From Acidobacteriota bacterium (lineage in GTDB: Bacteria; Acidobacteriota; CAIWXX01): a DNA stretch of 64,000 nucleotides. The notes beneath the pieces were generated by a model. That model worked only from the letters and a program-made list of their open reading frames with translations. It did not search any database and was not told where the DNA came from. The position numbers were made by a program, and so were the translations under genes. Location: the NCBI GenBank assembly GCA_040755995.1, contig JBFMAF010000036.1:279652-343651 (forward strand), read 5' to 3'. This document shows positions 25,598-57,225 of this stretch, in pieces (positions within the stretch are counted from its first letter, which is position 1; every line of letters starts with the position of its first letter).

Positions 25598-25960
25598 TCA
25601 GTAGTCATCCGACAGGAGTCCAACAGTCCTGAGCTCCCTCAGGAGCTCCGGCCTGGCTTCGCGAAGCCTCCTAACGCGCTTTCGCTTGTAGGGCGCTATC
25701 TCGGCCACCTGACGAACCAGCATCGCCAGCGACGCGATTCGCTCCTCGGATGAGCCTATCAGTTCCTGGAGTCGAAGGACGTTCTTCTCTGAAATATGCG
25801 ACTGCGTCATGAGTCCCAAGACCTCATCCTCTTGCTCGATCCTCGCAATCATCTCCGCGGGGAGTCGCTGACACTTCTTGCATATGTGGCGGACGTGACC
25901 CCGGCCAGAGAATTGCTCGTTCGGCCGGGACTTTCTACAGATACGGCAATAGTGACTCAT
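25598..25960 (-). CDS. Hypothetical zinc-binding protein
   Basis: MSHYCRIC...HICKKC; ATGA overlap with the Mo-subunit gene stop. Confidence 0.7.
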   Translation of the reverse strand: MSHYCRICRKSRPNEQFSGRGHVRHICKKCQRLPAEMIARIEQEDEVLGLMTQSHISEKNVLRLQELIGSSEERIASLAMLVRQVAEIAPYKRKRVRRLREARPELLRELRTVGLLSDDY

Positions 25961-28335
25961 GTTTCCAGAGCCCCGCGTTCCTTCTCGCGAAGCGCTGCGA
26001 CAATCTTCTCCGGGGTGATCGGCAGGTCGCGGATGCGGATGCCGATGGCGTCGCAGATGGCGTTGGCGATGGCGGGGGCGGTCGGGACGAGGCCGGGTTC
26101 GCCGACTCCTTTGGCTCCGAAGGGGCCCGCGGGGTCGTTCGTTTCGACGAAGGCGACATCGATCGGAAAACTCATGTCTCCGGCGGTCGGGAGCTTGTAG
26201 TCGGTGAAGCTCGGGTTCAGGATGCGGCCGCGCTCGGTGCGCACCTCCTCGTAGAGCCCGTAGCCGATCCCCTGCGCCAGCGCTCCGTAGATCTGCCCGC
26301 GCAGGGCCTGCGGATGCAGCACGCGCCCGACGTCGTGCACGGCGACGATCCGCAGAATACGCACGTCGCCCGTCTCTTCGTCCACTTCGACTTCCACACC
26401 TTGCGTTCCGAATGCGTAGGTCGCCGACATGTTGCCGAGGCCCTTCTCCCAATCGGGGAGCTCCGAAGGCGGGTCGTAGAACGCTTCCACGGTCAGCATG
26501 TTTCCTCCAGGACGGAAGTGGATCCCGCGCAGAATCTTCCCGAGCTCGATCGGCGCGCGGGGGTCGGAGGCGAGCGGCCCATCCTTGAGGAAGAGCCGGC
26601 CATCGGCGAGATCGAGCAGGCCCGGGCGGATCTCGCCGATATCGGAGTGCCCGCGTAGAGCTCGCCTCAACTCCTCAGCGTACACAGGCGCGGCCAGCTC
26701 AAAGAGACGCTCCCGCAGCTTCGCGGCCGCGAGCGCGACGGCCGAGAGCGCCGTGAACGCGCCGCGGCTCGCGTGCGTCCCCACGTCCCACGGACACGTG
26801 GCGGTGTCGGTCTGGTTGACGATGACGTTCTCGGGACGCACACCGACGAATTCGGCGACGCCTACCGCGAGCGCTGCGTGGTGGCCCTGCCCCATTTCCA
26901 CACCGCCCGCGTACACGTATACGTTGCCGAAATCGTCCAGACGCATGATCACACCGCTGGCATCCGAGCGGTAGATGCGCCCGGAACCTCCGACGTGCAT
27001 CAGCGATGCGATCCCGACACCGCGCCGCTTCGACCGGCCCTTCCCCCGCTTCTCACTCCACCCGAGCCGAGCGGCCGTCTGATCGATGCACTCGGGAAGA
27101 CCGCACGTTCCGATCTTCAGGCCCATCGGAGTCACATCTCCGGGCCGGTTGCTGTTGAGACGCCGGATATCGAGCGCATCCATGCCGGCCGCTTCGGCGA
27201 GCTCATCCAGGTTGCTCTCGATGGCCCAGGTCACCTCCGGGTTTCCATAGCCGCGCATGGCCTGGCAGTACGTGTTGTTCGTGTAGACGATCTGCGCTTC
27301 GAAGCGCACGGCGGGCACCCGATAGAGCGACGTCGCGGGCAGCATCATCACGCCGGGGTACGTCGCTCCCCACGACGTGTAGGCGCCGTTGTCCTGCAGC
27401 ACGTCGATCTCGCGGAAGGTGAGCCGGCCCGAGCTGTCGCAGCCCTGTTCGATCGACACGACAGCGCACTGGCGCGGCGACAGATACGCGAACTCCTCCT
27501 CGCGCGTGTAGAGGATCTTCACCGGGCGCCCCGTCGCGCGGGCGAGCAGGATCGCGATGTATTCGTAGGCGTGTGTGTCGAGCCCCGTGCCGAAGCCGCC
27601 GCCGAGTGCCGGCACGATGACGCGGCTGTTGCGGCCGGGGAGGCCCATGTCGGCCAGCGCGCGGTTGAAGTCGCGCTGCGCCAGGAACGGGATCTGCGTC
27701 TTCGCCCAGATCGTCAGGTTGCCGCGATCGTCCATCTCGGCGATGCAGCCGGCCGTGCCCATGCAGCTCTGCTGGATGCGCGGCACCGAAAACTGCCCGG
27801 AGACGATGTGCGCCGAGCGTCGCCGGGCCTCCGGCAGGTCGCCCGAGACATGGCGGAACGTGAGCGGCACGCGGTTGTCCGCTCGAGGCTTGCCCGAAGG
27901 GTCGGTTTCGTGCACAAGAGGCGCGCCCTCGGCGAGCGCCTCGCGCGGATCGAACACACCGGGCAGCGGCTCGTACTCGACGCGAATCGCATCCACAGCC
28001 TCGGCCGCAATCTCCGGATCGATCGCCGCCACCGCCGCCACCTCGTCGCGGAACTGCCGGACCTTGCCCTTCTTGAGCGCGAAGTTGTCGCGAAGGAAGC
28101 CGATCCGCACCTCGGGCGTGTTTGACGCCGTCAACACGGCACACACACCAGGCATGCGCTCGGCGCGCGATGCGTCGACATTCACGATCCGGGCGTGAGC
28201 GTGCTCGGAGAATTTGATCTTTCCGTAGAGCATCCGCGGGCGCGTGATGTCATGGATGTACTCGGCCGCACCGCGTGCCTTGGCGCCGGCATCGGGTCGC
28301 GGGATCTCTCTGCCGATGAACCGGTGCTCGCTCAT
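25957..28335 (-). CDS. Xanthine dehydrogenase family molybdopterin-binding subunit (candidate indoleacetate hydroxylase)
   Basis: GGGFG, AMRGYG, EMGQG, HASRG, HDVG, AKGVGEPG motifs. Confidence 0.9.
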   Translation of the reverse strand: MSEHRFIGREIPRPDAGAKARGAAEYIHDITRPRMLYGKIKFSEHAHARIVNVDASRAERMPGVCAVLTASNTPEVRIGFLRDNFALKKGKVRQFRDEVAAVAAIDPEIAAEAVDAIRVEYEPLPGVFDPREALAEGAPLVHETDPSGKPRADNRVPLTFRHVSGDLPEARRRSAHIVSGQFSVPRIQQSCMGTAGCIAEMDDRGNLTIWAKTQIPFLAQRDFNRALADMGLPGRNSRVIVPALGGGFGTGLDTHAYEYIAILLARATGRPVKILYTREEEFAYLSPRQCAVVSIEQGCDSSGRLTFREIDVLQDNGAYTSWGATYPGVMMLPATSLYRVPAVRFEAQIVYTNNTYCQAMRGYGNPEVTWAIESNLDELAEAAGMDALDIRRLNSNRPGDVTPMGLKIGTCGLPECIDQTAARLGWSEKRGKGRSKRRGVGIASLMHVGGSGRIYRSDASGVIMRLDDFGNVYVYAGGVEMGQGHHAALAVGVAEFVGVRPENVIVNQTDTATCPWDVGTHASRGAFTALSAVALAAAKLRERLFELAAPVYAEELRRALRGHSDIGEIRPGLLDLADGRLFLKDGPLASDPRAPIELGKILRGIHFRPGGNMLTVEAFYDPPSELPDWEKGLGNMSATYAFGTQGVEVEVDEETGDVRILRIVAVHDVGRVLHPQALRGQIYGALAQGIGYGLYEEVRTERGRILNPSFTDYKLPTAGDMSFPIDVAFVETNDPAGPFGAKGVGEPGLVPTAPAIANAICDAIGIRIRDLPITPEKIVAALREKERGALET

Positions 28336-28808
28336 CTCTCCCCTCTCCGCAGCCCCGCTGCCGCGTGGACGGCCTCGACGATTTGCACATATCCTGTGCA
28401 CCGGCAGATGTTCCCGACAAGTGCATCGCGAATATCGGACTCGCTGGGAGTGGGGTTTCGGTCCAGCAGCGCCTGTACCGACAGGATCATTCCGGGAGAG
28501 CAGAACCCGCATTGGATTCCGCCTTGCTCCACGAATGCCTGCTGAACTGCCGATAGCTCGGTTCCGCGCGGCAGGCCCTCGATCGTCGTGACCTCCCGCC
28601 CCTCCGCCTCGAGAGCCGGAAAGAGGCAGGAGTTAACCGGTCGCCCGTCCACCAGCACGGTACACGCCCCGCACTCACCCTTGCCACAGCCTTCCTTGGT
28701 CCCCGTCAAATGAAAGTGGTCACGCAGGACTTCCAGAAGCAGTTTGCTCCCCTCGACCTCGCCCAATACCGGCGAGCCATTGAGAGTGAATGCGAGGGGA
28801 TGCTTCAT
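28332..28808 (-). CDS. Xanthine dehydrogenase family 2x[2Fe-2S] subunit
   Basis: [23 protein letters not shown]. Confidence 0.95.
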
Positions 28809-29665
28809 GGTCTTGCCTGCCCCAGGAGCGTTTCCAGAGCGCGTCTCACGAAGACGCCGGTGATGTGTCTCCGGTATTCTTCACCGGCACGCAAGTCGCA
28901 AATCGGGGCTACGCTCTCGCGCGCAAGATTCGCCGCGGCCAGGAGGAGATCGCGTTTCATCTCTTGCCCGGTCAGCAGGCGTTCGACGGATTCAAGTCGT
29001 CGAGGTGTCGGGGCCACCGAACCGACGGCTACGCGCGCTTTCACGCAAGTGGCTCCATCCAGCTCGAGCAGGACAGCGACGCTCGCGAGCGCGAGGTCCA
29101 TGGCGACGCGTCTCTTCTTGAAGAAAATCGCACGAGCGTTCGGCGCAGGTGGGTCTAGGACCACACCCGTGACGAGGTCATGCGGCCCGAGGCGCGTCTG
29201 TCGAGGCCCGAGGAAGAATTCTTCGAGCGGGATCTCGTCTTCCTGCCCGCCCGGGCGACGGACGGCGAGTCGCGCCCCCAGTACCAAGAGCGGCGGGGCG
29301 GTGTCGGCGCAGGGGCTCGCCGTGCAGAGATTGCCGCCCACGGTCGCCACGTTTCGGATCTGCACCGAGCCCATCGAAGCCATCGCCTGCACCAGGACCG
29401 GGAAGCGTGAGGAAAGTGCCGGGTCGCCGATGCAGTCAGCGATCGGTGTGGCCGAGCCGACTCGGACGAAGCCGTCTGCACGCACGCCGGAGAGCTCCGC
29501 GATGCGGCGAAGCGAGACCAGCGCCGCCGGGCTCTCTTTGCGTTCCTTCATGCGCACAATCAGGTCGGTGCCGCCGGCCAGATACTTCGCACCTTCTGTG
29601 CGCGCCTTCAACTCCTGCGCCTCTTCCACACTACGCGGGCGCAAGAACTCGAAACGCCCCCTCAT
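28805..29665 (-). CDS. Xanthine dehydrogenase family FAD-binding subunit
   Basis: AGGTDL, QIRNVATVGGN, ASPCAD; no HcrB-type [4Fe-4S] insertion. Confidence 0.93.
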   Translation of the reverse strand: MRGRFEFLRPRSVEEAQELKARTEGAKYLAGGTDLIVRMKERKESPAALVSLRRIAELSGVRADGFVRVGSATPIADCIGDPALSSRFPVLVQAMASMGSVQIRNVATVGGNLCTASPCADTAPPLLVLGARLAVRRPGGQEDEIPLEEFFLGPRQTRLGPHDLVTGVVLDPPAPNARAIFFKKRRVAMDLALASVAVLLELDGATCVKARVAVGSVAPTPRRLESVERLLTGQEMKRDLLLAAANLARESVAPICDLRAGEEYRRHITGVFVRRALETLLGQARP

Positions 29666-30876
29666 GCGATAACTCCTTCTTGCCGCAACGCGGCGACTTC
29701 ACTTTCACGCAGCCCGGCCTCCCGCAGCACCGCATCGGTGTGCTCGCCGTATGCCGGAGCAAAGGGCAGCTCGCCTCCGCGACTCTCGAGGTGCGGCGTC
29801 GAGACCGCCGGCGGCGGCAAACGGACGAGACGGCCGTCGGGGGCCAGTGTTCGGAGCGCCGCCGCTTTCACGAAGTCCAGATCGGCAACCTTATCAACCG
29901 GCGTGATCGGCGCATGCGGTACCGTCGCGGCTCGGAGGACCTCGGCCACTTCGGCAAACGAGTGCCGGCTCGTGATCTCCTCGATCGCGCGAAAGATGTC
30001 CGCCTTGTGCGCGCGGCGCCCTTCATTCGTCGCGAATTCGCCGCGCCCGAGCGCCGCGAACATCGGATGGCGCGACAGGCGCTGCCACTGCGCGTCGCTC
30101 CCGATCGCAATGTAGATGTATCCGTCGCGCGTACGATAGGCGTTCACCGGAATGAACTGGCGATGCTCATTGCCGGCGCGGCGAAGCTCGGAGGGCGGGC
30201 TTCCCATGTCGAGCATCGGCAGGAAAGTGTGCAGCCACGACACCGCCGCCTGCGCCATCGATATGTCGATGCGCTTCCCACGGCGGGTGCGATCGCGCTC
30301 GGCCAGCGCCAACATCACCTGCAGAAACGCTTCGTCCCCCGCTTTGAGGTCGATCAGCGGCGGGCCGCACTGGAGCGGCGGGCCGTCGGCGTGGCCGGTG
30401 AGGTCCATGTAGCCGCAGAGCGCCTGCAGCATCGGATCGTAGCCGGGAACGTCCGGGTAGGCCGAGCCCATCGCCGAAATGCAGCACCAGACGAGCTCAG
30501 GGCGAGCCGCCGAGAGCGTCTCGTAGTCTATCCCAAGCTCGGTGTGGCGCGCGGGCAGCGTGTTCGTGCAAAAGACGTCCGCAGGCAGCTCGCGCACGAG
30601 CCGCAGCAGAAGTTGTCGTCCTTCCGGACGTTTCAGATTCAGCGCAATCGCTTCCTTGCCCACATTCGGCGCGACGTAGTAGCTGTGGCGGTCATCGCCG
30701 GCGATCCTACGGCCGACATACCGGTTCGGGTCTCCCTTGGTCTCGCGCCCTGAAGCCGGTGTCGGCTCGACGCGAATCACGCGGAGGCCCTGATGGACGA
30801 GGCGCAGCGTGGCGTAAGACATCGACAGTGCCTGTTCGAGCGCCAGGACAAGGGGCACGTTCTTGGAAGCCGGCAC
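29662..30876 (-). CDS. Family III (CaiB/BaiF) CoA-transferase
   Basis: VIRVEP, GDPNR, NVGK..IALNLK, GYDPMLQA, IDLKAG. Confidence 0.9.
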   Translation of the reverse strand: MPASKNVPLVLALEQALSMSYATLRLVHQGLRVIRVEPTPASGRETKGDPNRYVGRRIAGDDRHSYYVAPNVGKEAIALNLKRPEGRQLLLRLVRELPADVFCTNTLPARHTELGIDYETLSAARPELVWCCISAMGSAYPDVPGYDPMLQALCGYMDLTGHADGPPLQCGPPLIDLKAGDEAFLQVMLALAERDRTRRGKRIDISMAQAAVSWLHTFLPMLDMGSPPSELRRAGNEHRQFIPVNAYRTRDGYIYIAIGSDAQWQRLSRHPMFAALGRGEFATNEGRRAHKADIFRAIEEITSRHSFAEVAEVLRAATVPHAPITPVDKVADLDFVKAAALRTLAPDGRLVRLPPPAVSTPHLESRGGELPFAPAYGEHTDAVLREAGLRESEVAALRQEGVIA

Positions 30877-30970: not shown

Positions 30971-32998
30971 CTACAACCGCACCCGTTCCACGTAGGTGCC
31001 CAGCTCGTCCTTGAGCGTTGCACAAACCTCGCCGACGGAGGCATACGCAGAAACCGCCTCGAGGATCGGTGGCATGACGTTGTCGTGGGCTCGCGCCGCC
31101 TCACGCACTCGCCGCAGCAGACTCGCCACCGCCGCTCCGTCTCGCTCGCGCCTCACCCGTTCGAGCCGTGCGATCTGCCGCCGCGCCTCCTCTTCTCGAT
31201 ACGGGTGCATTTCCACAGGATGCGGCTGCTCCTCCTCGCGGCAACAATTCAGGCCGACCTTCTTGATGGCCCCACTGCGTATCTGTTTCTCGCGCTCATA
31301 GGCGCTGCGATTGACCGCAGCCTGCACGCGGCCGTCGGCGATCGCCGGGATGATCCCGCCCTGCGAGCTGATCTCTTCGAGAATCCTCTCGATCAGCGAT
31401 TCCATCTCGTTTGTCGTGGATTCGACAAACCACGACCCGGCGAGAGGGTCCACAGTGTCGCAGGCCCCTACCTCGTACATCAGGATCTGCATCGTACGCA
31501 GCGACAGACGCGCCGCGTGTTCGCTCGGGATCGTGTAAGCCTCGTCGTACGAGCACAGTGCCATCGTCTGCGTGCCGGAAAGGGCGCTGGCGAGGGCGTA
31601 GTAGGCGCCGCGCGCGATGTTGTTCTCGGGCTGCTCGATTGTGAGCCCGGCTCCGCCGCCGCCTGCGATCATGCGAAGCTGCATGGCGCGCGGGTCCTTC
31701 GCACCGTAGCGCTCGCGCAGGATCCGCGCGTAGAGCCGCCTTCCGGCGCGGAACTTCGCCACCTGCTCCCAGAGGTTTCCATGTATGTCGAAGTTGAAGG
31801 ATAGCCCCCGCGCCACTTCGTCAACCGCGAGCCCTCGCGACATCATGTGATCGACATAGGCGAAGGCGATCGCGAGCCCGTAGGCCATCTCTTGCGCCGG
31901 CGTCGCACCGGACTCGCGGATGTGGTAGCCGCACACGGACACCGGGTTGTAGTGAGGGACGTGCTCGGCGCAAAACGCGATCGTGTCGCCAACGAGCCGG
32001 ACGCTGTCTTCGACCGGGAAGATCCACGTGCCGCGCCCGACGAACTCCTTGAGGATGTCGTTTTGCGCCGTACCGCGAAGCTGACCGAGCTCGAAGCCGC
32101 GCTTCTTCGCCATCGCGAAAAACATCGCCATGATCGGCGCAGCGGCGCCGTTGATCGTGAGCGAGACGGTGGTGCGGTTGAGGTCGATTCCCTCGAACGC
32201 CTCCTCGATGTCGGCGAGCGTGTCCACTGCCATGCCGACCCGGCCGACTTCGCCCGCGGCCATGGGGTCGTCGGAATCGAGGCCGCATTGAGTCGGAAGA
32301 TCGAAGGCGACGTTGAGCCCCGTCTGCCCGTGCGCAATCAGGTACAGGAATCGTTCGTGCGTTTCCGCGGCCGTCCCGAAGCCGGAGTACTGCCGCATGG
32401 TCCAGGGGCGCTGGCGGTACATCAGCGGGTGGATGCCGCGAGTGAAGGGGTACTCGCCCGGAGCACCGATGCCGTTCCAGCCGCCACTGGCTTCGACATC
32501 GCTCGCCGCATAGACGGGCTTTATCTCGATGCCGGACTCCCATCGCACCTCGCGGGACTCGACACTCGTGCGCACGGCGGCGGCAACGGGCGCCGCGGCC
32601 CTGGCGGTTCGCCCTCGGATGAACGTCACGATATCTTCGAATGAAGCTCCTGTTGGAAAAACTGCGGCGACGCCGAGTTGCATGAGCGCCTCATGATCGC
32701 GCGGCGGCACGTTCCCGCCGACGATCAGGGTCGCGCAATCCATGATGCCTGCCGCGCGCAGCTCTTCCACCACACGCTCGCACAGCGGCACGTGGGCGCC
32801 CGAGAGAATCGAGAGGCCCACGACATCGACATCCTCGTCTCGCGCGGCGCGCGCAATAGCTTCGGGACTCTGGCGCAGCCCGGTGTAGATGACCTCCATG
32901 CCCGCGTCCATGAGGGCGCGGCAGATGAGCTTCGCGCCGACATCGTGCCCGTCCAGGCCGGGCTTGGCCACGAGCACGCGGACCGGCCGCTCGCTCAC
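30971..32998 (-). CDS. Adenosylcobalamin-dependent acyl-CoA mutase, B12-binding domain fused N-terminally to the catalytic barrel
   Basis: LDGHDVG and GLSILSG (B12 domain), then PGEYPFTRG, MRQYSGF, AFDLPTQ, QNDILKE, GYHIRE. Confidence 0.92.
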   Translation of the reverse strand: MSERPVRVLVAKPGLDGHDVGAKLICRALMDAGMEVIYTGLRQSPEAIARAARDEDVDVVGLSILSGAHVPLCERVVEELRAAGIMDCATLIVGGNVPPRDHEALMQLGVAAVFPTGASFEDIVTFIRGRTARAAAPVAAAVRTSVESREVRWESGIEIKPVYAASDVEASGGWNGIGAPGEYPFTRGIHPLMYRQRPWTMRQYSGFGTAAETHERFLYLIAHGQTGLNVAFDLPTQCGLDSDDPMAAGEVGRVGMAVDTLADIEEAFEGIDLNRTTVSLTINGAAAPIMAMFFAMAKKRGFELGQLRGTAQNDILKEFVGRGTWIFPVEDSVRLVGDTIAFCAEHVPHYNPVSVCGYHIRESGATPAQEMAYGLAIAFAYVDHMMSRGLAVDEVARGLSFNFDIHGNLWEQVAKFRAGRRLYARILRERYGAKDPRAMQLRMIAGGGGAGLTIEQPENNIARGAYYALASALSGTQTMALCSYDEAYTIPSEHAARLSLRTMQILMYEVGACDTVDPLAGSWFVESTTNEMESLIERILEEISSQGGIIPAIADGRVQAAVNRSAYEREKQIRSGAIKKVGLNCCREEEQPHPVEMHPYREEEARRQIARLERVRRERDGAAVASLLRRVREAARAHDNVMPPILEAVSAYASVGEVCATLKDELGTYVERVRL

Positions 32999-34113
32999 GG
33001 ATACAGCCCTCGCGCTATCGCGCCGCGCAGGATCTCGGATGTTCCTCCGCCGATGAGCGTGAAGCGCACGTCGCGCAGGTAGCGTTCGACGGGATACTCG
33101 CTCGCGAACCCGTAGCTCGCCATGACGCGGGCGGCGCGATCGCAGATGCGGAGCGCGGCCTCCGAGGCGAAGAGCTTCGCCATGGCTGCTTCATTTTCGT
33201 TGGGAAGCTTCTGGTCGCTTCTCCAGGCCGCCCAGTAGGTGAGCCTCCGCGCGGCTTCAAGATCGACGGTCATCTCGGCCAGGTGCTCCTGCACGGCCTG
33301 ATGATCCTTGATCGGTTTCCCGAACTGCTTCCGTACGGCTGCGTACGCCACGGCCTGTTCATGGGCCGCGGCGGCCACACCGAGTGCGAGCGCGGCGGTC
33401 ATGACGCGGATCTCGGCCAGCACCTCCCGGAGGTAGGTGCCGCCGGCGTCCCTTTCGCCGAGGAGGCACGTGGCCGGCGTGTCGTCAAAAGAGACCTCGG
33501 AAGTGAGCGACGCGCGCACGCCCATCTTGTCGATGTCCTTGCCGATCGACAGCCCGGGCGCCCCGGCTTCGACCAGAAATACCGAAAGGCTCTTCTCGCC
33601 CGTCTTCGCGAACACCGTGAACATCTGCGCCGCGCGGGCCGAGGTGACCCAGGTCTTGCAACCGGTCAAGCAAAAACGCCCATCACGCTCGACCGCGCGC
33701 GTCGTCATCGCCATGAGATCGCTGCCGGCGTCGGGCTCCGTCATGCAGATGGCGCCGACGATTTCGCCTCTAAGAGCTCCCGGCAGCAGCCGCGCGCGCA
33801 CCTCATCCTTTGCGAAACGCTGGACGAAAGTCGTCCCCATCAGTGACTGCAACGCGCAGGCAGCGGCTACAGAGAGGCTCCCGCGCGCGAGCTGCTCGAT
33901 GGCGAGGACGTACGACACCACGTCGGCGCCGCTCCCATCTGGCTCCGGGTACCGCATGCCGAAAAGCCCGAGCTCCCCGGCGCGCCGGAAAAGCTCGTTC
34001 GGGAAGCGCGGGTTGCGGTCGAGCTCCGCGGCGGCAGGGCGCACCTCGCGCTCGGCAAAAGCGCGAAACGCCTCCTGAACCGCCCGCAGCTCTGCGGTCA
34101 GAGCAAAGTCCAT
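32995..34113 (-). CDS. Acyl-CoA dehydrogenase
   Basis: MTEPDAGSD, KTWVT, KMGVRAS, RKQFGKPI, IGGGTSEI. Confidence 0.95.
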   Translation of the reverse strand: MDFALTAELRAVQEAFRAFAEREVRPAAAELDRNPRFPNELFRRAGELGLFGMRYPEPDGSGADVVSYVLAIEQLARGSLSVAAACALQSLMGTTFVQRFAKDEVRARLLPGALRGEIVGAICMTEPDAGSDLMAMTTRAVERDGRFCLTGCKTWVTSARAAQMFTVFAKTGEKSLSVFLVEAGAPGLSIGKDIDKMGVRASLTSEVSFDDTPATCLLGERDAGGTYLREVLAEIRVMTAALALGVAAAAHEQAVAYAAVRKQFGKPIKDHQAVQEHLAEMTVDLEAARRLTYWAAWRSDQKLPNENEAAMAKLFASEAALRICDRAARVMASYGFASEYPVERYLRDVRFTLIGGGTSEILRGAIARGLYP

Positions 34114-34172
34114 ATGTTGCCCATCTTCGCGAGCAGGCCGTTCATCGCAGGGAATTCCCGGACCACCGGTCC

Positions 34173-34211
34173 AGAGTAAAGCCTCCCGCAGCTTGTGTCA
34201 ATACTGTTGAC
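34173..34211 (-). promoter_or_regulatory. Putative sigma70 promoter of the acyl-CoA DH / mutase / Mo-enzyme operon
   Basis: Minus-strand TTGACA-N17-TACTCT (34201-34173); GTCAA-N5-TTGAC inverted repeat over the -35. Confidence 0.55.
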
Positions 34212-34380
34212 CATGTTGCAGCTTCCGGGTTTCGAGTGGGTGACCACTATGGGTTGTTGTCAGGAGACGCGAGTGCCGTTTCCCGGTACTTCTTTCGCTG
34301 CAAATAGGGCGCGCGCCGGGTTGCAACAGACGCGGAGACGCGGTGAGGGGGAGACGCGGAGACCCCGACGGAGGGCACGC

Positions 34381-34592
34381 GTTGCATCGCTGCCGACGCG
34401 GTAGATCGTTTCAACACCTAGCCCGCCGCGTTGGCGGCCGGCCCCGGCCGAGTCGCGCAGGTATTCGTGCTTGATCAGCGTGTGCGGCGTCATGTGCTCG
34501 AACATCTCGCAGTCCTGGTCCAGGACGCCGCCCGAGGCGTCTATCATCCCGATGTGGTCGTAGCCGTCGCAGTCGCGCATCGCGCCGGAGCC
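34381..34592 (-). pseudogene. Internal 212-bp fragment of hydantoinase B (copy 3)
   Basis: Colinear, ungapped copy of 49638-49849 with scattered substitutions. Confidence 0.92.
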
Positions 34593-48013: not shown

Positions 48014-48085
48014 CATGCGCTGCACCCGACGCCGCCCGCGTCGCTCGCGCGCCGCAGTCGGCGCGGGTGAGCGCCAACGTTATAC
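48008..48085 (+). mobile_element. attC site
   Basis: GCCTAAC-ATGCGCTGCACCCGAC ... GCGGGTGAGCGCCAAC-GTTATAC imperfect hairpin. Confidence 0.9.
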
Positions 48086-48115
48086 CGCTGTGCATAGTGC
48101 AGATGGAGGAAGACA

Positions 48116-49261
48116 GTGACCGATGAATGTGTCCGTGACTTTGGACCGTTTACTGGGGTCACGTGGTTGAACTGTGCCCATCAAGGCCCGTTGCCGCGTA
48201 TCGCGGCCGAAGAAGCTTATGAGGCGATAGCGTGGAAAGTCGCCCCTTATGAACTTACCACAGAACGATTCAATCGCGTTCCGGCACGCCTTAAAAGCGC
48301 TTTGGCTCGGCTTATTGGAGCTTCTGCGGATGAGATCATTCTGGGAAATAGTGCTTCCTACGGACTTCACCTCCTGGCTAATGGAATCCCCTGGGGGCAA
48401 GGAGACGAAGTTCTCCTCGTCGCGGGCGACTTTCCATCTGACATTCTCCCGTGGCTGCGGCTCGAAAAATATGGCGTTCGTATCTGCCTACTCCATTGCC
48501 AAAACCCGCTTCCCGATCCGGATGAGCTTGACAGGGCTCTGTCCCCTCGAACGCGGCTCTTTTGCTCCACCTGGGTTCACTCTTTTTCCGGCGTGACCGC
48601 TGATCTCGAAGGACTTGGCTCCGTCCGCCGTCGGAATGGTGTCACCTTTGTCGTCAACGCCTCTCAGGCGCTTGGTGCATGCCCGCTAGATGTACGGGTG
48701 GTTCCAATTGATGCTGTCGTCTGCGTCGGTTTCAAATGGCTGTGCGGTGCCTGTGGAACAGGTTTCTGTTGGATGAAACCGGAGCTATTGGCTTCGCTTC
48801 AGTGCAACCAATCCTATTGGCTTGCCGAAATGACAGCGGATGATTTAGGCAAAGAAAGCGTCGAGCCACATCTGCCAAAGGGTCCGCCCACGGCACGCAC
48901 CTACGATGTGTTCGGCACAGCCAGTTTTTTCAATTTCAAACCTTGGGCGGCCTCGGTAGAGTACCTGTTGGCGAAAGATATCGAACGCATTGCCGCCTAC
49001 GACCAAGACCTTGTGGATCAGCTCAGTGCTGGCCTAGATCCGAACAAATATGCTTTGACAAGCCCACCTGCTGGGGCGGCGCGTTCGACGCTGGTGTTTG
49101 TCTCGCATCGCGACCCCAGGCGTAACGATGAGATCCAAATGAAACTCAAGAATGCTGGCATCGAGGCGGCATATCGGAATGAAAGATTGCGTTTCTCACC
49201 TCATCTGTACCATACAAGTGCAGACATCACAAAAGCGTTGGCTGTGCTCAACGCTGCGTAA
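48116..49261 (+). CDS. Class V aminotransferase-fold PLP enzyme (integron cassette 2)
   Basis: WLNCAHQGP, VVNASQ, FKWLCG, LRFSPHLY; visibly lower GC than its flanks. Confidence 0.85.
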   Translation: MTDECVRDFGPFTGVTWLNCAHQGPLPRIAAEEAYEAIAWKVAPYELTTERFNRVPARLKSALARLIGASADEIILGNSASYGLHLLANGIPWGQGDEVLLVAGDFPSDILPWLRLEKYGVRICLLHCQNPLPDPDELDRALSPRTRLFCSTWVHSFSGVTADLEGLGSVRRRNGVTFVVNASQALGACPLDVRVVPIDAVVCVGFKWLCGACGTGFCWMKPELLASLQCNQSYWLAEMTADDLGKESVEPHLPKGPPTARTYDVFGTASFFNFKPWAASVEYLLAKDIERIAAYDQDLVDQLSAGLDPNKYALTSPPAGAARSTLVFVSHRDPRRNDEIQMKLKNAGIEAAYRNERLRFSPHLYHTSADITKALAVLNAA

Positions 49262-49269
49262 GGGAAGCG

Positions 49270-49296
49270 GTATAACAAGCGCCTATACCGGCGTTC
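49270..49296 (+). mobile_element. Truncated attC (left half) merged with the hydantoinase B stop region
   Basis: GTATAAC complements the GTTATAC opening cassette 2; followed by AAGCGCCTATACCGG; no right arm. Confidence 0.7.
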
Positions 49297-51119: not shown

Positions 51120-53186
51120 TCATTGGCTCGCCTTCAGCACGACGCTGCCGGCCTCGTCCACTTCCCCCGTATATGCCGCGCTGACGAAGACGGTGGTGTC
51201 GGTGCGCTCGAGCAGCGCGGGCCCGCGGATGACGTTGCCGGCCATCAGCCGGTGCCCGTCGTAGACCGGCACTTCTGCGAAGCTGCCGGACTCCGGCACG
51301 AAGGCCCGCCTGGATCCCTTTCGAATCTCACTCGCATCCGCGCCGCCGCGCGGGTAGCGAGGCAGTGCCGGCGGGCGGGTCCGCCCCAGCGATCGTACAC
51401 GCACGTTGATCAGCTCCAGCCCCGTGCCCTCGGCCTTGAGCTGATATCCGTACAGCCGGTCGTGCTCGGCGTGGAACAGCTCGGCGATCGCCGGCCAATC
51501 TCCCGCCGCGATCAGCTCGGGCGTGACCGGGAGAGTCACCTCGTGGTACTGCTTCAAGTAGCGCAAGTCCAGCGCCACCTGATTTTCGATCGTCCCTGCC
51601 CCCTCGGCCTCAAGCTGCCTCCGCCCCTCGGCCGCCATCTCATCCACCAGGCTTCTCAGACGCTCGCGTCCGATCGCCCCAAGCGGCTCCACGCACGATC
51701 TGACGAAATCATGTTGCAGGTCGCAGAGCAACATGCCGGTGGCACATAGTGTCGATGCGGCGTAGGGGATGATCACGGTTGGGATGTCGAGCTCCGTCGC
51801 GATCATGCAAGCGTGAAGGGGTCCGGCTCCGCCAGCCACCAGCAGCGGGAATTCGCGCGGGTCGAGCCCGCGCTTGACCGTGATCTCGCGCACGCCGTTG
51901 GCCATGTTGCTGTTGATGACCCGGTACATGCCCGCCGCGGCTTCTTCGGTAGAAAGCGAAAGCGGACGCGCGATGTGAACCTCGATCGCGCTGTGGGCGG
52001 CCGTCACGTCGAGCTTCAGCCGCCCCCCGGCGAAGTAGGCGGGGTCGAGGTAGCCGAGCACGAGGTTGGCGTCGGTCGAGGTCGGGCGCTCGCCTCCTCG
52101 CCCGTAGCAGGCGGGGCCCGGCAGCGCGCCGGCCGAAGCCGGTCCCATCCGCAGCAGGCCGCCCTCGTCGATCCACCCGATGCTCCCGCCTCCCGCGCCG
52201 ATCGTGCTGATGTCGAGCATCGGAAGCGCGATCCGCAAGCGGTCGATTTCGCCGTCATGACGCAGTGCGGCAGCGCCGTGGCGCACCAGTGACGCATCGA
52301 AGCTGGTCCCACCCATGTCGACCAGGATGCAGTCGTCGCGTCCCTGCGCCGAAGCGAAGACGGCCGCGGCGCGCGGGCCGCCGGCAGGGCCTGAGAGCAG
52401 TGTCGATGCCGGCAGGCGCTCGGTCGCAGCAGGGACCGCCAGGCCGCCATTCGACTGCATGATCAGCAGCACCCCCGCAAAACCCGCTCCGGCGAGCCTC
52501 GAAGTGAGGTTCTGCATGTAGCCCTTCACCACCGGGCCGACGTAGGCGTTGAGCACAGTTGTCGAGACGCGATCATAGAAACGTATGACCGGCAGCACCT
52601 CTGAGGAGACGCTGGTGAAGAGTCCGGGCAGCGTTTGGCGCACGAGCGCCGCAGCGGCACGCTCGTGAGCCGCGTTTGCATAGGAATGCATGAAGCAGAT
52701 GGCAACGCTCGTCACCCCGTCCCGCCTGAGGGTCTCGGTGGCACGCCCCACCGATCCCAGATCCAGCGGCGCGGTCTCCTCACCACGGAAGTCGATTCTC
52801 CCCGTCACGGGGATGCGAAGCCGGCGTGGCACCAGCGGCACGACATTCTGAAAGCGGTTGTCATACTGTCTTTCTCGGATGCCGCGCCGCATCTCCAGGG
52901 CGTCCCTCACGCCCTCGGTTGTGATAAGCGCCGTAGGCGCCCCGCTTCGTGTCAACACGGCGTTGGTGGCGACCGTAGTCCCGTGGACGATCAGCGATGT
53001 TGCGCGCGCGAAGTCGGCGACCGGCATGCCTCGTGCTTCCGCCATGAGACGGATGCCGTCGAGTACACCCAGCGACGGGTCCTGCGGGGTCGAGAGAACC
53101 TTGAAGGAGCCGACCGATCCGTCCTCCGCCCAGAGGAACAGGTCGGTGAAAGTGCCGCCGACGTCGATGCCTACTTTGAAGCTCAT
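51120..53186 (-). CDS. Hydantoinase A/oxoprolinase family ATP-binding subunit
   Basis: GIDVGGTFTD, HGTTVATN, LLSGPAGG, DMGGTSFD, IGAGGGSI, GGAGPLH. Confidence 0.95.
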   Translation of the reverse strand: MSFKVGIDVGGTFTDLFLWAEDGSVGSFKVLSTPQDPSLGVLDGIRLMAEARGMPVADFARATSLIVHGTTVATNAVLTRSGAPTALITTEGVRDALEMRRGIRERQYDNRFQNVVPLVPRRLRIPVTGRIDFRGEETAPLDLGSVGRATETLRRDGVTSVAICFMHSYANAAHERAAAALVRQTLPGLFTSVSSEVLPVIRFYDRVSTTVLNAYVGPVVKGYMQNLTSRLAGAGFAGVLLIMQSNGGLAVPAATERLPASTLLSGPAGGPRAAAVFASAQGRDDCILVDMGGTSFDASLVRHGAAALRHDGEIDRLRIALPMLDISTIGAGGGSIGWIDEGGLLRMGPASAGALPGPACYGRGGERPTSTDANLVLGYLDPAYFAGGRLKLDVTAAHSAIEVHIARPLSLSTEEAAAGMYRVINSNMANGVREITVKRGLDPREFPLLVAGGAGPLHACMIATELDIPTVIIPYAASTLCATGMLLCDLQHDFVRSCVEPLGAIGRERLRSLVDEMAAEGRRQLEAEGAGTIENQVALDLRYLKQYHEVTLPVTPELIAAGDWPAIAELFHAEHDRLYGYQLKAEGTGLELINVRVRSLGRTRPPALPRYPRGGADASEIRKGSRRAFVPESGSFAEVPVYDGHRLMAGNVIRGPALLERTDTTVFVSAAYTGEVDEAGSVVLKASQ

Positions 53187-53776
53187 GGTGAGACCGCCTT
53201 CATGCCGAGCGCGAAGGCACGGCGGCCGGCTGGTCCCCCAGGGCAGGCCGACTCGACCACGCGCACAATCGATTGAGGATCGAGAGGCAGAATTTGCAGG
53301 GCCGCTAGAGCGCCGAGCATGACCAGGTTGAGTGATCGAGACGACCCCGCGGCTCTCGCAATTGCCGGACCGTCAAGAGTGACAACCTCACACGTCGCCT
53401 CGCGTAGAGCCGACAGCATCCCGCTCAAGTCGGGGTAGGGCAGCCCCTTCTGCGCCAGAGTGAACGGAGGGACCTTCCCGGTGCTGATCACCACGCGCGC
53501 GCGCCGCGAGAGGCGCGGGACCGCACGCAAGGCTTCGATCGGCTCCAGTGCCAGCAGCGCGTCGGCCGCCGCCGGTCCTATGAAGGAGCTGTACCCGGGT
53601 CCGATGACAACCGTGGACTCCACACTGCCACCACGCTGCGACATTCCGTGAAGCTGCCCCAGCACGACCGGCTTTCCTTCTGCGAGCGCGGCTTCTCCCA
53701 GGACACGCGCCACGCTCAGAACTCCTTGGCCGCCGACTCCCACCACCAGCAACCGGAAGCGGCCGTTTGGCGTCAT
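53183..53776 (-). CDS. iorB: Indolepyruvate oxidoreductase beta subunit
   Basis: VGVGGQG, HGMSQRGGSV, LEPIEALR, NLVMLGA. Confidence 0.92.
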   Translation of the reverse strand: MTPNGRFRLLVVGVGGQGVLSVARVLGEAALAEGKPVVLGQLHGMSQRGGSVESTVVIGPGYSSFIGPAAADALLALEPIEALRAVPRLSRRARVVISTGKVPPFTLAQKGLPYPDLSGMLSALREATCEVVTLDGPAIARAAGSSRSLNLVMLGALAALQILPLDPQSIVRVVESACPGGPAGRRAFALGMKAVSP

Positions 53777-56700
53777 GAGCGCTCCAGCGCCGGGCGGATG
53801 GCGCCGTTTGGACAGAAGACAACGCAGACGCCACAGCCGTTACAAGCTCCCGGATCGATTGCGACGTGTCCGTCCGCCAGATAGAAAGCCGGGCAGCCGA
53901 AAAGGTCGATGCACGCGCGGCAGTTGCCGCACATTCCGCAGACCGCACACCGAGCAGCTTCGGTGCGCGCCTGCGCTTCCGTCAGCGCGCCGACGACTTC
54001 ATCGAAGCTGTCAGCGCGCGTGTCCGGCAACAGATGCGGCGGTGCCTGGCGCCAGACATTGTCGGCTCGCCGGTAACGCGTGCGCTGCGTCTGCGGATGC
54101 GGCCATGCACTCATCAGGGGCGCCGGCGGCCGGCGATCCGAGGCTTCAGCACCCCGCAAGGATCGATCGATCCCCCACGCGGCGCGCAAACCCCATGCGA
54201 TCGCCTCTGTAACGGTGCGGGCCCCGCCCGCCAGGTCCCCGCCGGCGAACACGCGCGGGTGGGATGTAGCAGCAGTCTCGCTGTCCACACGAAGCCCGCC
54301 TCCGTCCGTGCGCTCGAGCGCCAGGTCATCGAGGGCAGGGGACTGCCCTGTGGCTAGCAGCACCAAGTCCGTCTCGTAGAGCTCTTCAGAGCCTTCGACC
54401 ACCAACGGCCGCGGCCGCCCGGAAGCATCCGGGGCTCCCGGTTGCGTCCGCGCGAACACCACACCGCCGGCAGCCAGCGCCGTCGGCTGCAGGTGCGTCC
54501 GGACTTCGATGCCCTCTTCCGCAGCCGCATCGATTTCAGTGGCGATGGCCGGCATCTCCTCGCGCCCGCGCCGGTAAGCGATCAGAACGTGAAGCGCGCC
54601 GGCGCGTCGAGCGGTGCGTGCCGCATCGACCGCCGCATTGCCGCCGCCGATCACAACCACCCGCCGCGCCGTGGTGAGGCCGCCATCTTTGGCTCGCTTC
54701 AAGTACGCCAGAGCATCCAGGTGGGGCGGCGCACCCGGTGAGGCCGGAAGATCGAGCCGAGCGGGCATCTGCGCGCCTAACGCGAGGAAGACGGCCGAAT
54801 GCGACTCGACGAGAGCCGACAACTTGATGTCTCGACCCAGGAAACATCCCCCTTGAAAAGCGACGCCGAGCGCGAGGATGCGATCGACATCGCGACGCAA
54901 CGCGTCAGGAGGCAGACGGAACTGCGGGATGCCGTAGCGGAGGAGCCCTCCTGGTTCGGCTTCAGCGTCATACAGGATGACGGCGTAGCCGCGCAATCTC
55001 AGCTCGTGAGCCGCGGCGAGCCCGGCAGGGCCGGCGCCGACGACGGCGACGCTGCGATCGTGATCGGGTTCCTTCGGCGGGTCGTACGGGAGGCGCTCCC
55101 GCCTGGCGGCCCAGTCCATCACGAACCGCTTCAGATCGTTGATCGCAACGGGCCCGTCGTGGCCTGCCCGCACGCAGACTTCCTCGCATGGTTTATGACA
55201 GACGCGGCAGACGGAGTCAGGGAGCGGCAGGCGGCTCATGATGAGCGCGAGCGCCCGCTCGTACTGGCCCGCTGCGATGTGCCCGGCGTATCCCTGGACG
55301 CAAAGGCCGAGTGGACAGTGGACGGCGCAGGGGGCGACCGGCTGCGGCCACGCAGCTTCCGGAGCCGCCGCCGTCCAGCCCTCGAGAGCGCGGCTGCGCG
55401 CCATGTGGCGCTCGTGTCCTCGGGAGATATCCAGATCGCAACGCATTCCGCACCCGCTGCGGCCGCACGTGGCGCAACGATCGGGATCGATCTCGAAAAT
55501 GGTGCGCGAAGATGGCGCGCCTGTCAGTCGCGATTCCCATACCGGGCAAGGATGCTCGACCACGATCACGCTTACACCCTTCGCGTCGCGTGCGCCTTCG
55601 AAAGCCAGGATGGTTCCGGCGAGATCCTTGACGGGATCGACGATCTGGACATCGTTCGCCCCGAGGGCCCTCGCTACGTCGGCTATCGGAGCGCGGTGAG
55701 TGATTTTCCCGTTTTCGAGGCCTGTGGCGGGGCTCTCCTGGAAACCCGTCATGGCGGTCACGCCGTTGTCCAGGATCACGGCCACCATCGAGACGCTTTC
55801 TTTGATGGCGTTCAGCAGCGGCGGAATGCCGGAGTGGAAGAAGGTGGAGTCTCCCATGAAACCGACGGTGCGCTTGCCGGTCATGCGCGAAACACCTGCG
55901 GCCAATGTGAAGCCCGCTCCCATGCACAGCAAAGCATCAGCCGTATCAAGAGGCGGTCCGAAGCCCAGGGTGTAGCAGCCGATGTCGCTGAAGAAAAGCT
56001 GGTCTTCGGGGAAAGCCGCGCGGGCTGCGAAGTACGTCGCACGGTGGGGACAGCCGGAGCAAAGCACGGGGGGCCGCGCAGGAAGATCGGCGGTCCCGGG
56101 CGCCGGCGCCGTAGCGCTGTGAGGGGTCCCTAATCCGAACGCATCAAAGAGCGCACGCGCGATGATCTCCGGCGTGTACTCGAAAGGCTCCGGCAGATGG
56201 CCCGATCGTTTTCCCAGGGTGGTCACGCTCAGTCCATGACGCGCCGAGAGCGCGAGCAGCGTGTCCTCGATAAACGGAGACAGCTCCTCCAGGACGAGTA
56301 CCTTATCCGCGCGTCTAAGCAGGTTCACGAGCGCCTGCTCCGGGAACGGATAGACTCCACGCATTGTGGCGAGAGCCACGTTGGCCTCGGCCCCGAGCTC
56401 GTGGAGCACATCCGCGCACGTGGCAGCGGGGGCGCCGGATGCGAGGACGATACATGCACCTTCGCCCTCGACCCTGAACAGCTCTTCCATGGTTCTGCGC
56501 GCCGTATCCAGTCGCTTGGGGATTTGCATCCGCATGACACGCGCGTTGGCCGGGATCGGCACCAGCCGCCGCGGGTCGCGCTCGAAGCCCCGTACCTCAC
56601 GCGTGCCCAGCGCGCCGTAGAGCACCGGAGCCCGCGTGTGCGCCACACGCGTCGTGATTCGGAGAAGCACAGGGAGGCTGCTGCGCTCGGACAGCTCGAA

Positions 56701-57189
56701 GGCGAGGCGCGTCAGTGTGAGCGCGTCCTGTGGGGTCGTGGGATCCAGCACCGGAATGTGCAACATCGGCCCCAGGTACCGCTGGTCCTGTTCGTTTGGG
56801 CTCGTTAGACAGGATGGGTCGCCGGCGCTCACGATGACCATACCACCCCGCACGCCGATGTAGGGAATGGTCGTGAGCGGATCGCCCGCCACCATCAGGC
56901 CGAGGTGCTTCATGGCGGTGATGGCGCGAGCGCCGGCCAGTGAGGCCGCGAACGCCATCTCGATCGCAACCTTCTCGTTGACCGAGTACTCGAAGACGAT
57001 GCCGGCCCGCTTCGCCAGCCTGGCGAAAGCGTCAGTTACTTCAGAGGACGGTGTTCCCGGATAACCGCTGGCAAAGGCGACTCCCGCTTCGATCGCGCCT
57101 CGAACGACGGCCTCATTGCCGAGCAGCAACACCGCGCGCCCGGGCGCGTCCAGGAGCAGCGGACTTGCTTCATGGGTATCCTGAAGCAT
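53773..57189 (-). CDS. iorA: Indolepyruvate oxidoreductase alpha subunit with inserted GltD-like FAD/NAD(P)H module
   Basis: GNEA, GYPGTPSSE, NEKVA, DIGCY, GDSTFFHSG, DN..TAMTG; then PC..HCP, CRVCHKPCE, GAGPAG, GGGNAA; terminal 2x[4Fe-4S] motifs. Confidence 0.9.
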   Translation of the reverse strand: MLQDTHEASPLLLDAPGRAVLLLGNEAVVRGAIEAGVAFASGYPGTPSSEVTDAFARLAKRAGIVFEYSVNEKVAIEMAFAASLAGARAITAMKHLGLMVAGDPLTTIPYIGVRGGMVIVSAGDPSCLTSPNEQDQRYLGPMLHIPVLDPTTPQDALTLTRLAFELSERSSLPVLLRITTRVAHTRAPVLYGALGTREVRGFERDPRRLVPIPANARVMRMQIPKRLDTARRTMEELFRVEGEGACIVLASGAPAATCADVLHELGAEANVALATMRGVYPFPEQALVNLLRRADKVLVLEELSPFIEDTLLALSARHGLSVTTLGKRSGHLPEPFEYTPEIIARALFDAFGLGTPHSATAPAPGTADLPARPPVLCSGCPHRATYFAARAAFPEDQLFFSDIGCYTLGFGPPLDTADALLCMGAGFTLAAGVSRMTGKRTVGFMGDSTFFHSGIPPLLNAIKESVSMVAVILDNGVTAMTGFQESPATGLENGKITHRAPIADVARALGANDVQIVDPVKDLAGTILAFEGARDAKGVSVIVVEHPCPVWESRLTGAPSSRTIFEIDPDRCATCGRSGCGMRCDLDISRGHERHMARSRALEGWTAAAPEAAWPQPVAPCAVHCPLGLCVQGYAGHIAAGQYERALALIMSRLPLPDSVCRVCHKPCEEVCVRAGHDGPVAINDLKRFVMDWAARRERLPYDPPKEPDHDRSVAVVGAGPAGLAAAHELRLRGYAVILYDAEAEPGGLLRYGIPQFRLPPDALRRDVDRILALGVAFQGGCFLGRDIKLSALVESHSAVFLALGAQMPARLDLPASPGAPPHLDALAYLKRAKDGGLTTARRVVVIGGGNAAVDAARTARRAGALHVLIAYRRGREEMPAIATEIDAAAEEGIEVRTHLQPTALAAGGVVFARTQPGAPDASGRPRPLVVEGSEELYETDLVLLATGQSPALDDLALERTDGGGLRVDSETAATSHPRVFAGGDLAGGARTVTEAIAWGLRAAWGIDRSLRGAEASDRRPPAPLMSAWPHPQTQRTRYRRADNVWRQAPPHLLPDTRADSFDEVVGALTEAQARTEAARCAVCGMCGNCRACIDLFGCPAFYLADGHVAIDPGACNGCGVCVVFCPNGAIRPALERS

Positions 57190-57196
57190 GACAAGA

Positions 57197-57225
57197 AGAT
57201 TAGGCCCAAAGGGGTGATTCGTCAA
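57197..57225 (-). promoter_or_regulatory. Putative leaderless sigma70 promoter of the ior-hydantoinase operon
   Basis: TTGACG-N17-TAATCT, 7 nt before ATG 57189. Confidence 0.6.

Follow-up and report, generated by a model that had tools for sequence, protein, structure and literature searches.

Anaerobic breakdown of indoleacetate is described for the iaa operon of Aromatoleum strain EbN1, and the published scheme (Fig. 1 legend of PMC8360864) starts with IaaB, which activates indoleacetate to indoleacetyl-CoA. Indolepyruvate oxidoreductases (IORs) convert arylpyruvates to arylacetyl-CoA according to a passage of PMC5109826, and a passage of PMC13285125 names phenyl-, hydroxyphenyl- and indolepyruvate as their substrates. 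Here we describe a set of ten genes that combines the two systems, found in a window of 64,000 nt from an Acidobacteriota bacterium (GenBank assembly GCA_040755995.1, contig JBFMAF010000036.1, positions 279,652 to 343,651 of the forward strand). We consider it probable from sequence comparison that the ten genes are iaa orthologues with iorAB standing in for IaaB, that they carry tryptophan carbon from indolepyruvate to 2-aminocinnamoyl-CoA without oxygen, and that the operon was once continuous and was later cut in the 3' half of iaaE by repeated insertions. The iaa pathway itself is already published, and the locus is a variant of it and no new kind of system. How bacteria degrade the tryptophan ring anaerobically is little documented, and an iaa cluster with an IOR in the ligase slot offers a short gene list for it. 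What the locus contributes is a count of the slot before iaaC, a phylogeny in which the ligase type is confined to a single branch, and an insertion hotspot at which one operon has been split, in two families, at the same gene.

Orthology and layout of the iaa genes

Open reading frame (ORF) and domain scans placed all ten pathway genes on the minus strand in two blocks, co-oriented at 49283-57189 and 25957-34113 as had been predicted from the sequence alone. The first block reads iorA-iorB-iaaC-iaaE and the second iaaF-iaaGH-iaaL-iaaIJK:

53773..57189, minus strand: iorA, 1138 amino acids (aa), IOR alpha core (about residues 1-590) plus an NfnB/GltD-like module (about residues 619-1085); TIGR03336, Pfam and Protein Data Bank (PDB) matches
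53935..55335, minus strand: NADP(H)-type flavoprotein module within iorA, with GGGNAA and YRR motifs; PDB matches
53183..53776, minus strand: iorB, IOR beta subunit; TIGR03334 at 162.8 bits
51120..53186, minus strand: iaaC orthologue, hydantoinase A-type subunit of the predicted ATP-dependent lactam opener; 57% identical to the Aromatoleum-locus protein, sole match in the genome
49283..51025, minus strand: iaaE orthologue, hydantoinase B-type subunit; 70% identical to the Aromatoleum-locus protein, placed by trees, 3' half an insertion hotspot
32995..34113, minus strand: iaaF orthologue, decarboxylating (amino)benzylmalonyl-CoA dehydrogenase type; 54%, GGG motif
30971..32998, minus strand: iaaG-iaaH fusion, 675 aa, B12-binding domain followed by mutase barrel; 54% and 64%
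29662..30876, minus strand: iaaL orthologue, family III CoA-transferase; 56%, next paralogue at 31%
28805..29665, minus strand: iaaI orthologue, FAD subunit of the molybdenum hydroxylase, 286 aa; 37%
28332..28808, minus strand: iaaJ-type 2Fe-2S subunit; 49%, tied with a paralogue on contig C18
25957..28335, minus strand: iaaK orthologue, molybdenum subunit of a divergent subclade; 41%, placed by tree and motifs

All ten reading frames are open and full length. Six of the eight junctions inside the blocks are 4-nt overlaps and the other two are 94-nt gaps; GC content is 0.66 in each block versus 0.61 in the 15,169-nt gap between them. No CoA ligase, hydratase or thiolase gene occurred among the 52 window ORFs scanned, in agreement with the original prediction, and an Rfam search of the window returned no match. 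A fusion of the iron-sulfur and molybdenum subunits was rejected, because the long ORF from 28512 overlaps the iron-sulfur gene in another frame.

Our reference was locus L039 of Aromatoleum sp. LC066, used in place of strain EbN1, with gene letters assigned from order and domain content. This locus runs regulator, thiolase, ligase, two hydantoinase subunits, dehydrogenase, two mutase subunits, three molybdenum-enzyme subunits, CoA-transferase and binding protein. Of the 22 bases in each of the two iaaF primers published for EbN1, its own iaaF matches 21 and 20. The best matches in the host genome (7.7 Mb, 99.8% complete) to its IaaC, E, F, G, H, I, K and L all lay in the window, at 57, 70, 54, 54, 64, 37, 41 and 56% identity; the window IaaJ tied with a paralogue elsewhere in the genome, so that eight of nine Iaa proteins had a clear best match here. 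All IaaF proteins carry GGG in place of YEG, as a passage of PMC8360864 states. GGG is present in the window IaaF; among the dehydrogenases compared, 53 of the 54 with at least 45% identity have it, against 2 of the 77 less similar ones.

The window hydantoinase B fell inside the IaaE clade, both with FastTree and with IQ-TREE on 31 selected rows; distant hydantoinase B proteins (no named 5-oxoprolinase) were the outgroup in these trees and did not form one side of a branch, leaving the root unsure. The molybdenum subunit grouped with IaaK (support 99), on a long branch common to genome G156 and locus L032. The ten genes are thus, as judged from these comparisons, orthologues of the known anaerobic indoleacetate genes. 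The original prediction of an iaa-type ring-opening pathway gains support from the agreement of reciprocal best matches, GGG motif and trees, and two of the checks proposed with it came out in its favour. In best-match searches and phylogeny against Iaa proteins, IaaE and the molybdenum subunit fell in iaa clades and clustering with the named alternatives failed; in related genomes, the two blocks adjoin in 10 other loci with ior in front, and G156 has the exact order.

The window shares with the EbN1 operon orthologues of iaaC, E, F, G, H, I, J, K and L and the order C-E-F-G-H; the IaaF GGG motif and the glycine-rich mutase motif are common to both, and so are most of the catalytic-site motifs of the molybdenum subunit. 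In contrast to EbN1, it has iorAB in the iaaB slot, iaaL before iaaIJK, and iaaG fused to iaaH. The cluster is without iaaA, iaaB, iaaM, iaaP and regulator, for which no orthologue was found in the genome, its molybdenum subunit is just 41% identical, and the operon is cut by 15 kb.

The reactions of the Iaa proteins are taken from the literature; the substrate, the electron acceptor and expression are what we infer. An aminotransferase encoded elsewhere would yield indolepyruvate, which IorAB would convert to indoleacetyl-CoA and CO2, the electrons probably passing through the built-in flavoprotein module to NADP+. IaaIJK would hydroxylate C2, IaaCE would open the lactam with ATP, and IaaL would move the CoA. 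The fused B12 mutase would then form (2-aminobenzyl)malonyl-CoA, to be oxidised and decarboxylated by IaaF to 2-aminocinnamoyl-CoA. The original prediction had the molybdenum hydroxylase act first and CoA activation follow; its enzyme set holds, but the scheme as outlined in PMC8360864 puts CoA activation first.

Several related enzymes were considered as identities for these proteins and rejected. For 4-hydroxybenzoyl-CoA reductase, the alpha model scored 533.5 against a cut-off of 994.6 bits and the beta model 119.2 against 404.6; the beta subunit has about 320 aa, whereas the window FAD subunit has 286 and matches the 321-position model in two stretches. The methylmalonyl-CoA mutase equivalog scored 588 against 876 bits; the window B12 domain is N-terminal and not C-terminal, and MIAGGGG aligns to the HCQTSG-type motif. 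The window mutase keeps the tyrosine and arginine at positions that we take to bind the carboxylate. Caprolactamase models scored 676 (CapA) and 376 (CapB) against 1000 bits each, and acetophenone carboxylase models (ApcA/C/D) 85-343 against cut-offs of 1250-1500 bits.

The two gene fusions that had been claimed, which we took as IorA with a flavoprotein module and small with large mutase subunit, are both real and recur elsewhere. In the mutase, IaaG and IaaH are linked in the order of their genes. This fusion is absent from all 67 loci compared yet present in 31 other database proteins, of which 13 carry the Iaa-type MIAGGGG, and the idea that it is unique to the window was rejected.

A different cluster was seen in genome G016 (locus L020, 727-19545), with two hydantoinase pairs, a xanthine dehydrogenase-family trio with a 328-aa FAD subunit, an isochorismatase-fold gene and a CoA-transferase. 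Its dehydrogenase has GAG instead of GGG, and the cluster is probably iaa-like but for another substrate.

The fused IorA and the slot before iaaC

TIGR03336 and TIGR03334 are the top family matches for the window IorA and IorB. As in the Pyrococcus-type IorAB, there are two subunits encoded by an alpha-beta gene pair, a thiamine pyrophosphate motif and C-terminal ferredoxin motifs. The window IorA differs from that type in about 470 inserted NfnB/GltD-like residues, and comparison with the ends of unfused IorA places this flavoprotein module inside the ferredoxin domain. Residues 615-1114 align to NfnA, NfnB and GltD chains in the PDB (4ylf, 2vdc, 9n5u, 9bov; E 1e-54 to 1e-91), and no IOR-type chain was among the PDB matches of IorA at E 1e-20. 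The module shares GGGNxA and YRR with the NfnB/GltD/NfnA modules, and we take YRR to mark a preference for NADP(H). The insertion suggests NADP+ instead of ferredoxin as the electron acceptor of the IOR. It differs from those modules in that the electron donor would be a 2-oxoacid and no small NfnA-type partner gene lies beside iorA, and thus electron bifurcation is not implied.

The fused IorA has 120 listed homologues at 52-81% identity, 117 of them over at least 97% of the length, labelled as Acidobacteria, Planctomycetes, Krumholzibacteria and Deltaproteobacteria. GGGNxA is present in 114 of the 120 and YRR in 74. A tree built from the core of the window IorA, the locus matches and 30 of the 120 homologues placed fused IorA cores as sister to unfused iaa-linked cores (support 98). 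Among 401 genomes of the phylum, with two candidates scored per genome, three have the fused IorA, each before iaaC; IaaE occurs in nine of the 401. In five other iaa-bearing genomes no full-length fused IorA was found. Literature searches for an IorA-GltD/NfnB fusion found no study, and the passages of PMC5109826 are without one. The fusion is widespread and raises the question whether a 2-oxoacid oxidoreductase reduces NADP+ alone. In a Flavobacteriales metagenome-assembled genome (locus L034), an iaa cluster has a distant full-length fused IorA (30%), with iorB after the CoA-transferase.

Directly before iaaC, 97 loci have iorB in 12 cases, a ligase in 23, both in none, and neither or a cut-off end in 62; for the 58 loci with at least 2.5 kb upstream these counts are 10, 20, 0 and, for neither, 28. 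One ligase locus (L187) also has a distant ior on the other strand. No IaaB orthologue was found in the host genome (best 38%), in its closest relative G001 or in G156 (36-39%), against 47-70% in iaa loci. Because CoA activation comes first in the published scheme, an IOR would be a direct substitute for the ligase, and since none of the 97 loci has both iorAB and IaaB before iaaC, indoleacetyl-CoA is likely a direct product of the IOR. The IaaE trees unite the ligase loci in a single clade whose sister group is the loci with unfused ior; when rooted on the Bacteroidota rows, they place the ligase type within the ior types, the root being unsure.

In 45 of the 97 loci iaaE is followed directly by iaaF, and 10 have a continuous ior-C-E-F. 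G156, of another family in the same phylum, has fused iorA, iorB, C, E, F, G, H, L, I, J and K in window order without a gap. Behind its cluster lies a HisC-type aminotransferase and in front the iaaP-iaaA types (thiolase, hydratase), and its molybdenum subunit belongs to the same divergent subclade as the window's; G156 thus holds the whole gene set in one place. In G001 an aminotransferase directly precedes iorA, and its orthologue (75%) lies on contig C5 of the host genome. Two database proteins, P0001 (IorA, 80%) and P0122 (fused mutase, 81%), both list a longest contig of 16,849 bases, and three more such pairs exist; if the two share one contig, it would have no room for a 15-kb gap.

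The claim that the pathway is fed from tryptophan through the IOR stood in part: ior adjoins iaaC in gene order, but IORs also take phenyl- and hydroxyphenylpyruvate, and we infer tryptophan feeding from gene order only. For Ferroglobus placidus, Aklujkar reportedly proposed in 2014 that an aminotransferase and an IOR feed an iaa-type route, and ior inside iaa clusters may already have been published. F. placidus has an iaaF orthologue (a passage of PMC8360864); our literature searches listed no paper linking ior with iaa, and the passages of PMC6221969 and PMC6737245 do not settle it.

Two neighbourhoods deserve mention. Upstream of the window iorA (57351-58174, plus strand) lie short ORFs, the first resembling a decayed tyrosine recombinase by eye and giving no family match; in G001 this position is occupied by the aminotransferase. 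The G156 cluster is flanked (L190 9862-13560; L189 2280-6332) by a reductive dehalogenase-family gene over the TIGR02486 cut-off, a sodium symporter, two flavoproteins and a benzoylformate decarboxylase-like gene, a setting that hints at halogenated indole substrates.

The gap between the blocks and the iaaE pieces

Between the blocks lies accessory cargo, together with three orphan pieces of iaaE that were absent from the original prediction and are on the same strand as iaaE:

34114..49282, no strand: accessory cargo, 15.2 kb, gap between the blocks
43004..43186, minus strand: orphan iaaE piece, codons 516-577; 86% to the resident gene, 14 of 25 mismatches at third codon positions
39228..39335, minus strand: orphan iaaE piece, codons 540-575; 86% to the resident gene, 7 of 15 mismatches at third positions
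34381..34592, minus strand: orphan iaaE piece, codons 392-462; 90% to the resident gene, 17 of 21 mismatches at third positions, 268 nt before the iaaF start
45989-47281, plus strand: broken integron integrase in two pieces, in-frame TAA at 46868

The bias of mismatches to third codon positions indicates that the pieces diverged while coding, as parts of other, functional iaaE alleles. The same gene was struck elsewhere: in G042, of another family, iaaE and iaaF are separated by 32.5 kb holding six iaaE pieces. Two pieces lie on the iaaE contig of G027 and a third on another of its contigs, the two in G001 derive from the 5' part of the gene, and single pieces occur in 2 of 88 further loci. 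This count left out L120 (flanking repeat), L155 (41-nt weak match) and a piece in G009 (contig end). The pieces start at codons 3, 117, 255, 335, 392, 445, 490, 510, 516, 520 and 562, and four start at 540-548 (one in the window, three in G042).

Such pieces are not a peculiarity of iaaE, an idea that we rejected since 84 of 3687 ORFs of the host genome have an orphan piece nearby. Downstream of eighteen host genes, and on the same strand, lies a copy of the gene's own 3' end (87-592 nt, 76-96% identical); 248 of 426 mismatches are at third positions. On their sequence, we read these tail pieces as traces of cargo having entered at gene tails throughout the genome. Such pieces would result from one-sided homologous recombination with an illegitimate second joint. 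Passages of PMC2853133 describe insertion with a long, variable target duplication and passages of PMC5635113 integrase-free hotspots at core genes, and the gap pieces fit both. Like known integrase-lacking insertions, the gap holds cargo without a working integrase, bracketed by long imperfect copies of chromosomal gene parts. It differs from them in that the target is a mid-operon catabolic gene, the pieces are stacked, the same gene was struck in two families, and the pieces differ mostly at third codon positions.

From this pattern the operon was likely once continuous and then cut at the 3' half of iaaE by repeated insertions. Incoming DNA with part of another iaaE allele would have recombined in, one piece being left behind each time, and the stacked pieces would record an operon surviving use as an insertion hotspot. 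A separate promoter before iaaF would keep the second half usable and transcribable. The two candidates are:

57197..57225, minus strand: sigma70-like promoter candidate TTGACG-17 nt-TAATCT, ending 7 nt before the iorA ATG; under the strict threshold
34173..34201, minus strand: sigma70-like promoter candidate TTGACA-17 nt-TACTCT, before iaaF; under the strict threshold

A sigma70-like promoter had been claimed for each block. Strict promoter and terminator scans before the blocks were empty and each -10 box matches just 3 of 6 positions, but a relaxed motif (TTGACN-N16-18-TANNNT) gave five sites in the window, of which the two minus-strand ones (57225, 34201) directly precede the blocks. Genome-wide, 275 of 684 relaxed-motif sites lie near an ORF start versus 7.6% of random positions. 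A promoter for each block is therefore plausible, and a transcript from the iorA candidate would be leaderless. G027 and G042 also have a promoter-like site before iaaF, followed by a conserved leader of about 290 nt with an apparent stem (L198 about 8975-9270; L193 about 4805-5095); the G027 copy had no Rfam match, and the leader could be a regulatory RNA.

The cargo comprises a class V aminotransferase, a signal peptidase II-like protein, the broken integron integrase, a metallo-beta-lactamase-fold hydrolase, a MazF-like toxin, an AAA/DUF4143 ATPase, a Na/Ca antiporter and a coiled-coil protein. We rejected the aminotransferase (48116-49261) as a pathway gene: it is on the opposite strand, its matches are cysteine-desulfurase-like, and no kynureninase model was listed. 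The hydrolase beside the integrase (44380-45384, plus strand) has SoxH-related best models, with beta-lactamase models far under cut-off. Defence-like cargo includes the AAA/DUF4143 protein, which matches PDC-S01 (40923-42871, plus strand), the 882-aa coiled-coil protein with a weak LmuB match (36362-39010, minus strand) and the MazF-like toxin. Partial copies of the integron integrase occur on contigs C47, C55 and C34.

Alternative readings and neighbouring genes

A number of observations weigh against the pathway as we have drawn it. Both oxidoreductase subunits score under the curated cut-offs, IorA with 613.8 bits against 650.9 for TIGR03336 and IorB with 162.8 against 205.8 for TIGR03334; the insertion in IorA interrupts its match to the alpha model. 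The substrate range of IORs spans three arylpyruvates (the passage of PMC13285125 cited above), and the exclusion of ior and ligase is one switch in the tree, consistent with substitution and neither proof nor statistical evidence of it. G042, G027 and G216 have iaaCE without ior beside it. G001, the closest relative and of the same family, keeps aminotransferase-iorAB-iaaCE, with ior-iaaCE at 71-90%; no second block was found there, and its best matches to IaaF, IaaH and IaaK reach only 39, 47 and 37%. The window molybdenum subunit has GTGLD and GNPE where the Aromatoleum-type IaaK has GSKLD and GNLQ. Later steps are also missing from the host genome: no orthologue was found of IaaA (best 36-41% versus 52-80% in iaa loci) or IaaP (best 29-34%, partial), and no match to IaaM. 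No class I benzoyl-CoA reductase scored over cut-off (two of three BcrB-like matches score better as 2-hydroxyacyl-CoA dehydratases), BoxB was not found, AbmA-type matches were under cut-off and covered the reductase half only, and the two tungsten enzymes compared, out of 6 candidates, were aldehyde oxidoreductases and not BamB. With no known ring-attacking enzyme found, ring opening is encoded and ring destruction is not evident.

These gaps matter most for the possibility that the two halves no longer serve one pathway, IorAB working in general aromatic amino-acid fermentation and the iaa part being a dying relic or used only to the ring-opened stage. Besides the absent enzymes and the first block kept alone in G001, the 2-hydroxyacyl-CoA dehydratase-type and ADP-forming acyl-CoA ligase-type genes of the host, typical of amino-acid fermenters, speak for it. 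We think it unlikely all the same: the ten frames are open, full length and tightly overlapping, the second block has its own promoter-like site, as have G042 and G027 before iaaF, generic hydratases, dehydrogenases and a thiolase in the genome could in principle finish beta-oxidation, and the G001 assembly is in 350 contigs, so that an assembly gap is possible. About as improbable, and touching the split only, is that the pieces are attachment-site remnants of a site-specific integrase that targets iaaE near codon 540, like islands at tRNA genes. The four starts at codons 540-548 and the integrase inside the gap would fit, but the other pieces start anywhere from codon 3 to 562, and 18 different host genes have a downstream tail piece. 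The gap has neither an intact integrase nor a single shared attachment site (the integrase is broken and the junctions vary), a crude search found no attC-like pair near it, the window recombinases had no match in the stretches of eight relatives, and no integrase was among the 25 ORFs scanned in the G042 insert.

Less likely again is that the cluster acts on a close analogue, either a substituted indole or free indoleacetate activated by IaaL, with the ior adjacency incidental. The long branch and altered motifs of the molybdenum subunit agree with this, as do the 28 of 58 loci that lack both ior and ligase in the slot before iaaC and the intermolecular CoA transfer with succinate reported for IaaL in a passage of PMC8360864. 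Yet the same molybdenum subclade occurs in G156, whose cluster unites aminotransferase, IOR and all later iaa genes; the fused and unfused iaa-linked IorAs are sister clades; and neither an IaaM-type uptake protein nor IaaB was found in the host genome. We give hardly any credence to a chance gathering of housekeeping or other-pathway paralogues (5-oxoprolinase, acetophenone carboxylase, 4-hydroxybenzoyl-CoA reductase, methylmalonyl-CoA mutase). It draws on the top NCBIfam and PDB matches, which are caprolactamase, 4-hydroxybenzoyl-CoA reductase alpha and hydroxyisobutyryl- or methylmalonyl-CoA mutase, but the equivalog matches are far under cut-off, save for domain models of methylmalonyl-CoA mutase, whose cut-offs every mutase of this sort exceeds. 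The proteins share far more identity with Iaa proteins, and the genome has separate paralogues of the mutase and the molybdenum enzyme; the Iaa best matches, the IaaE and IaaK trees and the gene order conserved across many loci refute it.

Taking the iaa pathway with iorAB for IaaB as the preferred reading, one may tentatively go further, to a joint picture that we regard as possible and rather doubtful. The ancestral iaa pathway would be an IOR-entered anaerobic tryptophan pathway, running here through a ferredoxin-free indolepyruvate:NADP+ oxidoreductase, and the ligase-fed Aromatoleum type would be a derived proteobacterial branch. In the host, the route would end with the export of a ring-opened product, an aminocinnamoyl or aminobenzoyl compound, and in several lineages new genes would repeatedly enter at the 3' half of iaaE without an integrase.

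Other features lie outside the two blocks. A beta-propeller gene (58826-60698, minus strand) has about 14 tandem 132-nt repeats of about 88% identity, with a distant paralogue at 23533-25584. Next to a TIR-domain gene (61452-63964, minus strand; PADLOC TIR-TM match, E 1.5e-70), at the contig end, are a XerD-like recombinase and a toxin of ChpB/MazF type. At 7104-16774 (plus strand), an extracytoplasmic function (ECF) sigma factor (TIGR02999) and a Ser/Thr kinase-TPR protein are flanked by two thermolysin-family peptidases, which together with an M48 peptidase at 3046-4383 fit a protein-degrading lifestyle. Lastly, a phosphoesterase gene (4446-6641) is bracketed by a 54-nt direct repeat (4392-4445 and 6704-6757, 89% identical).

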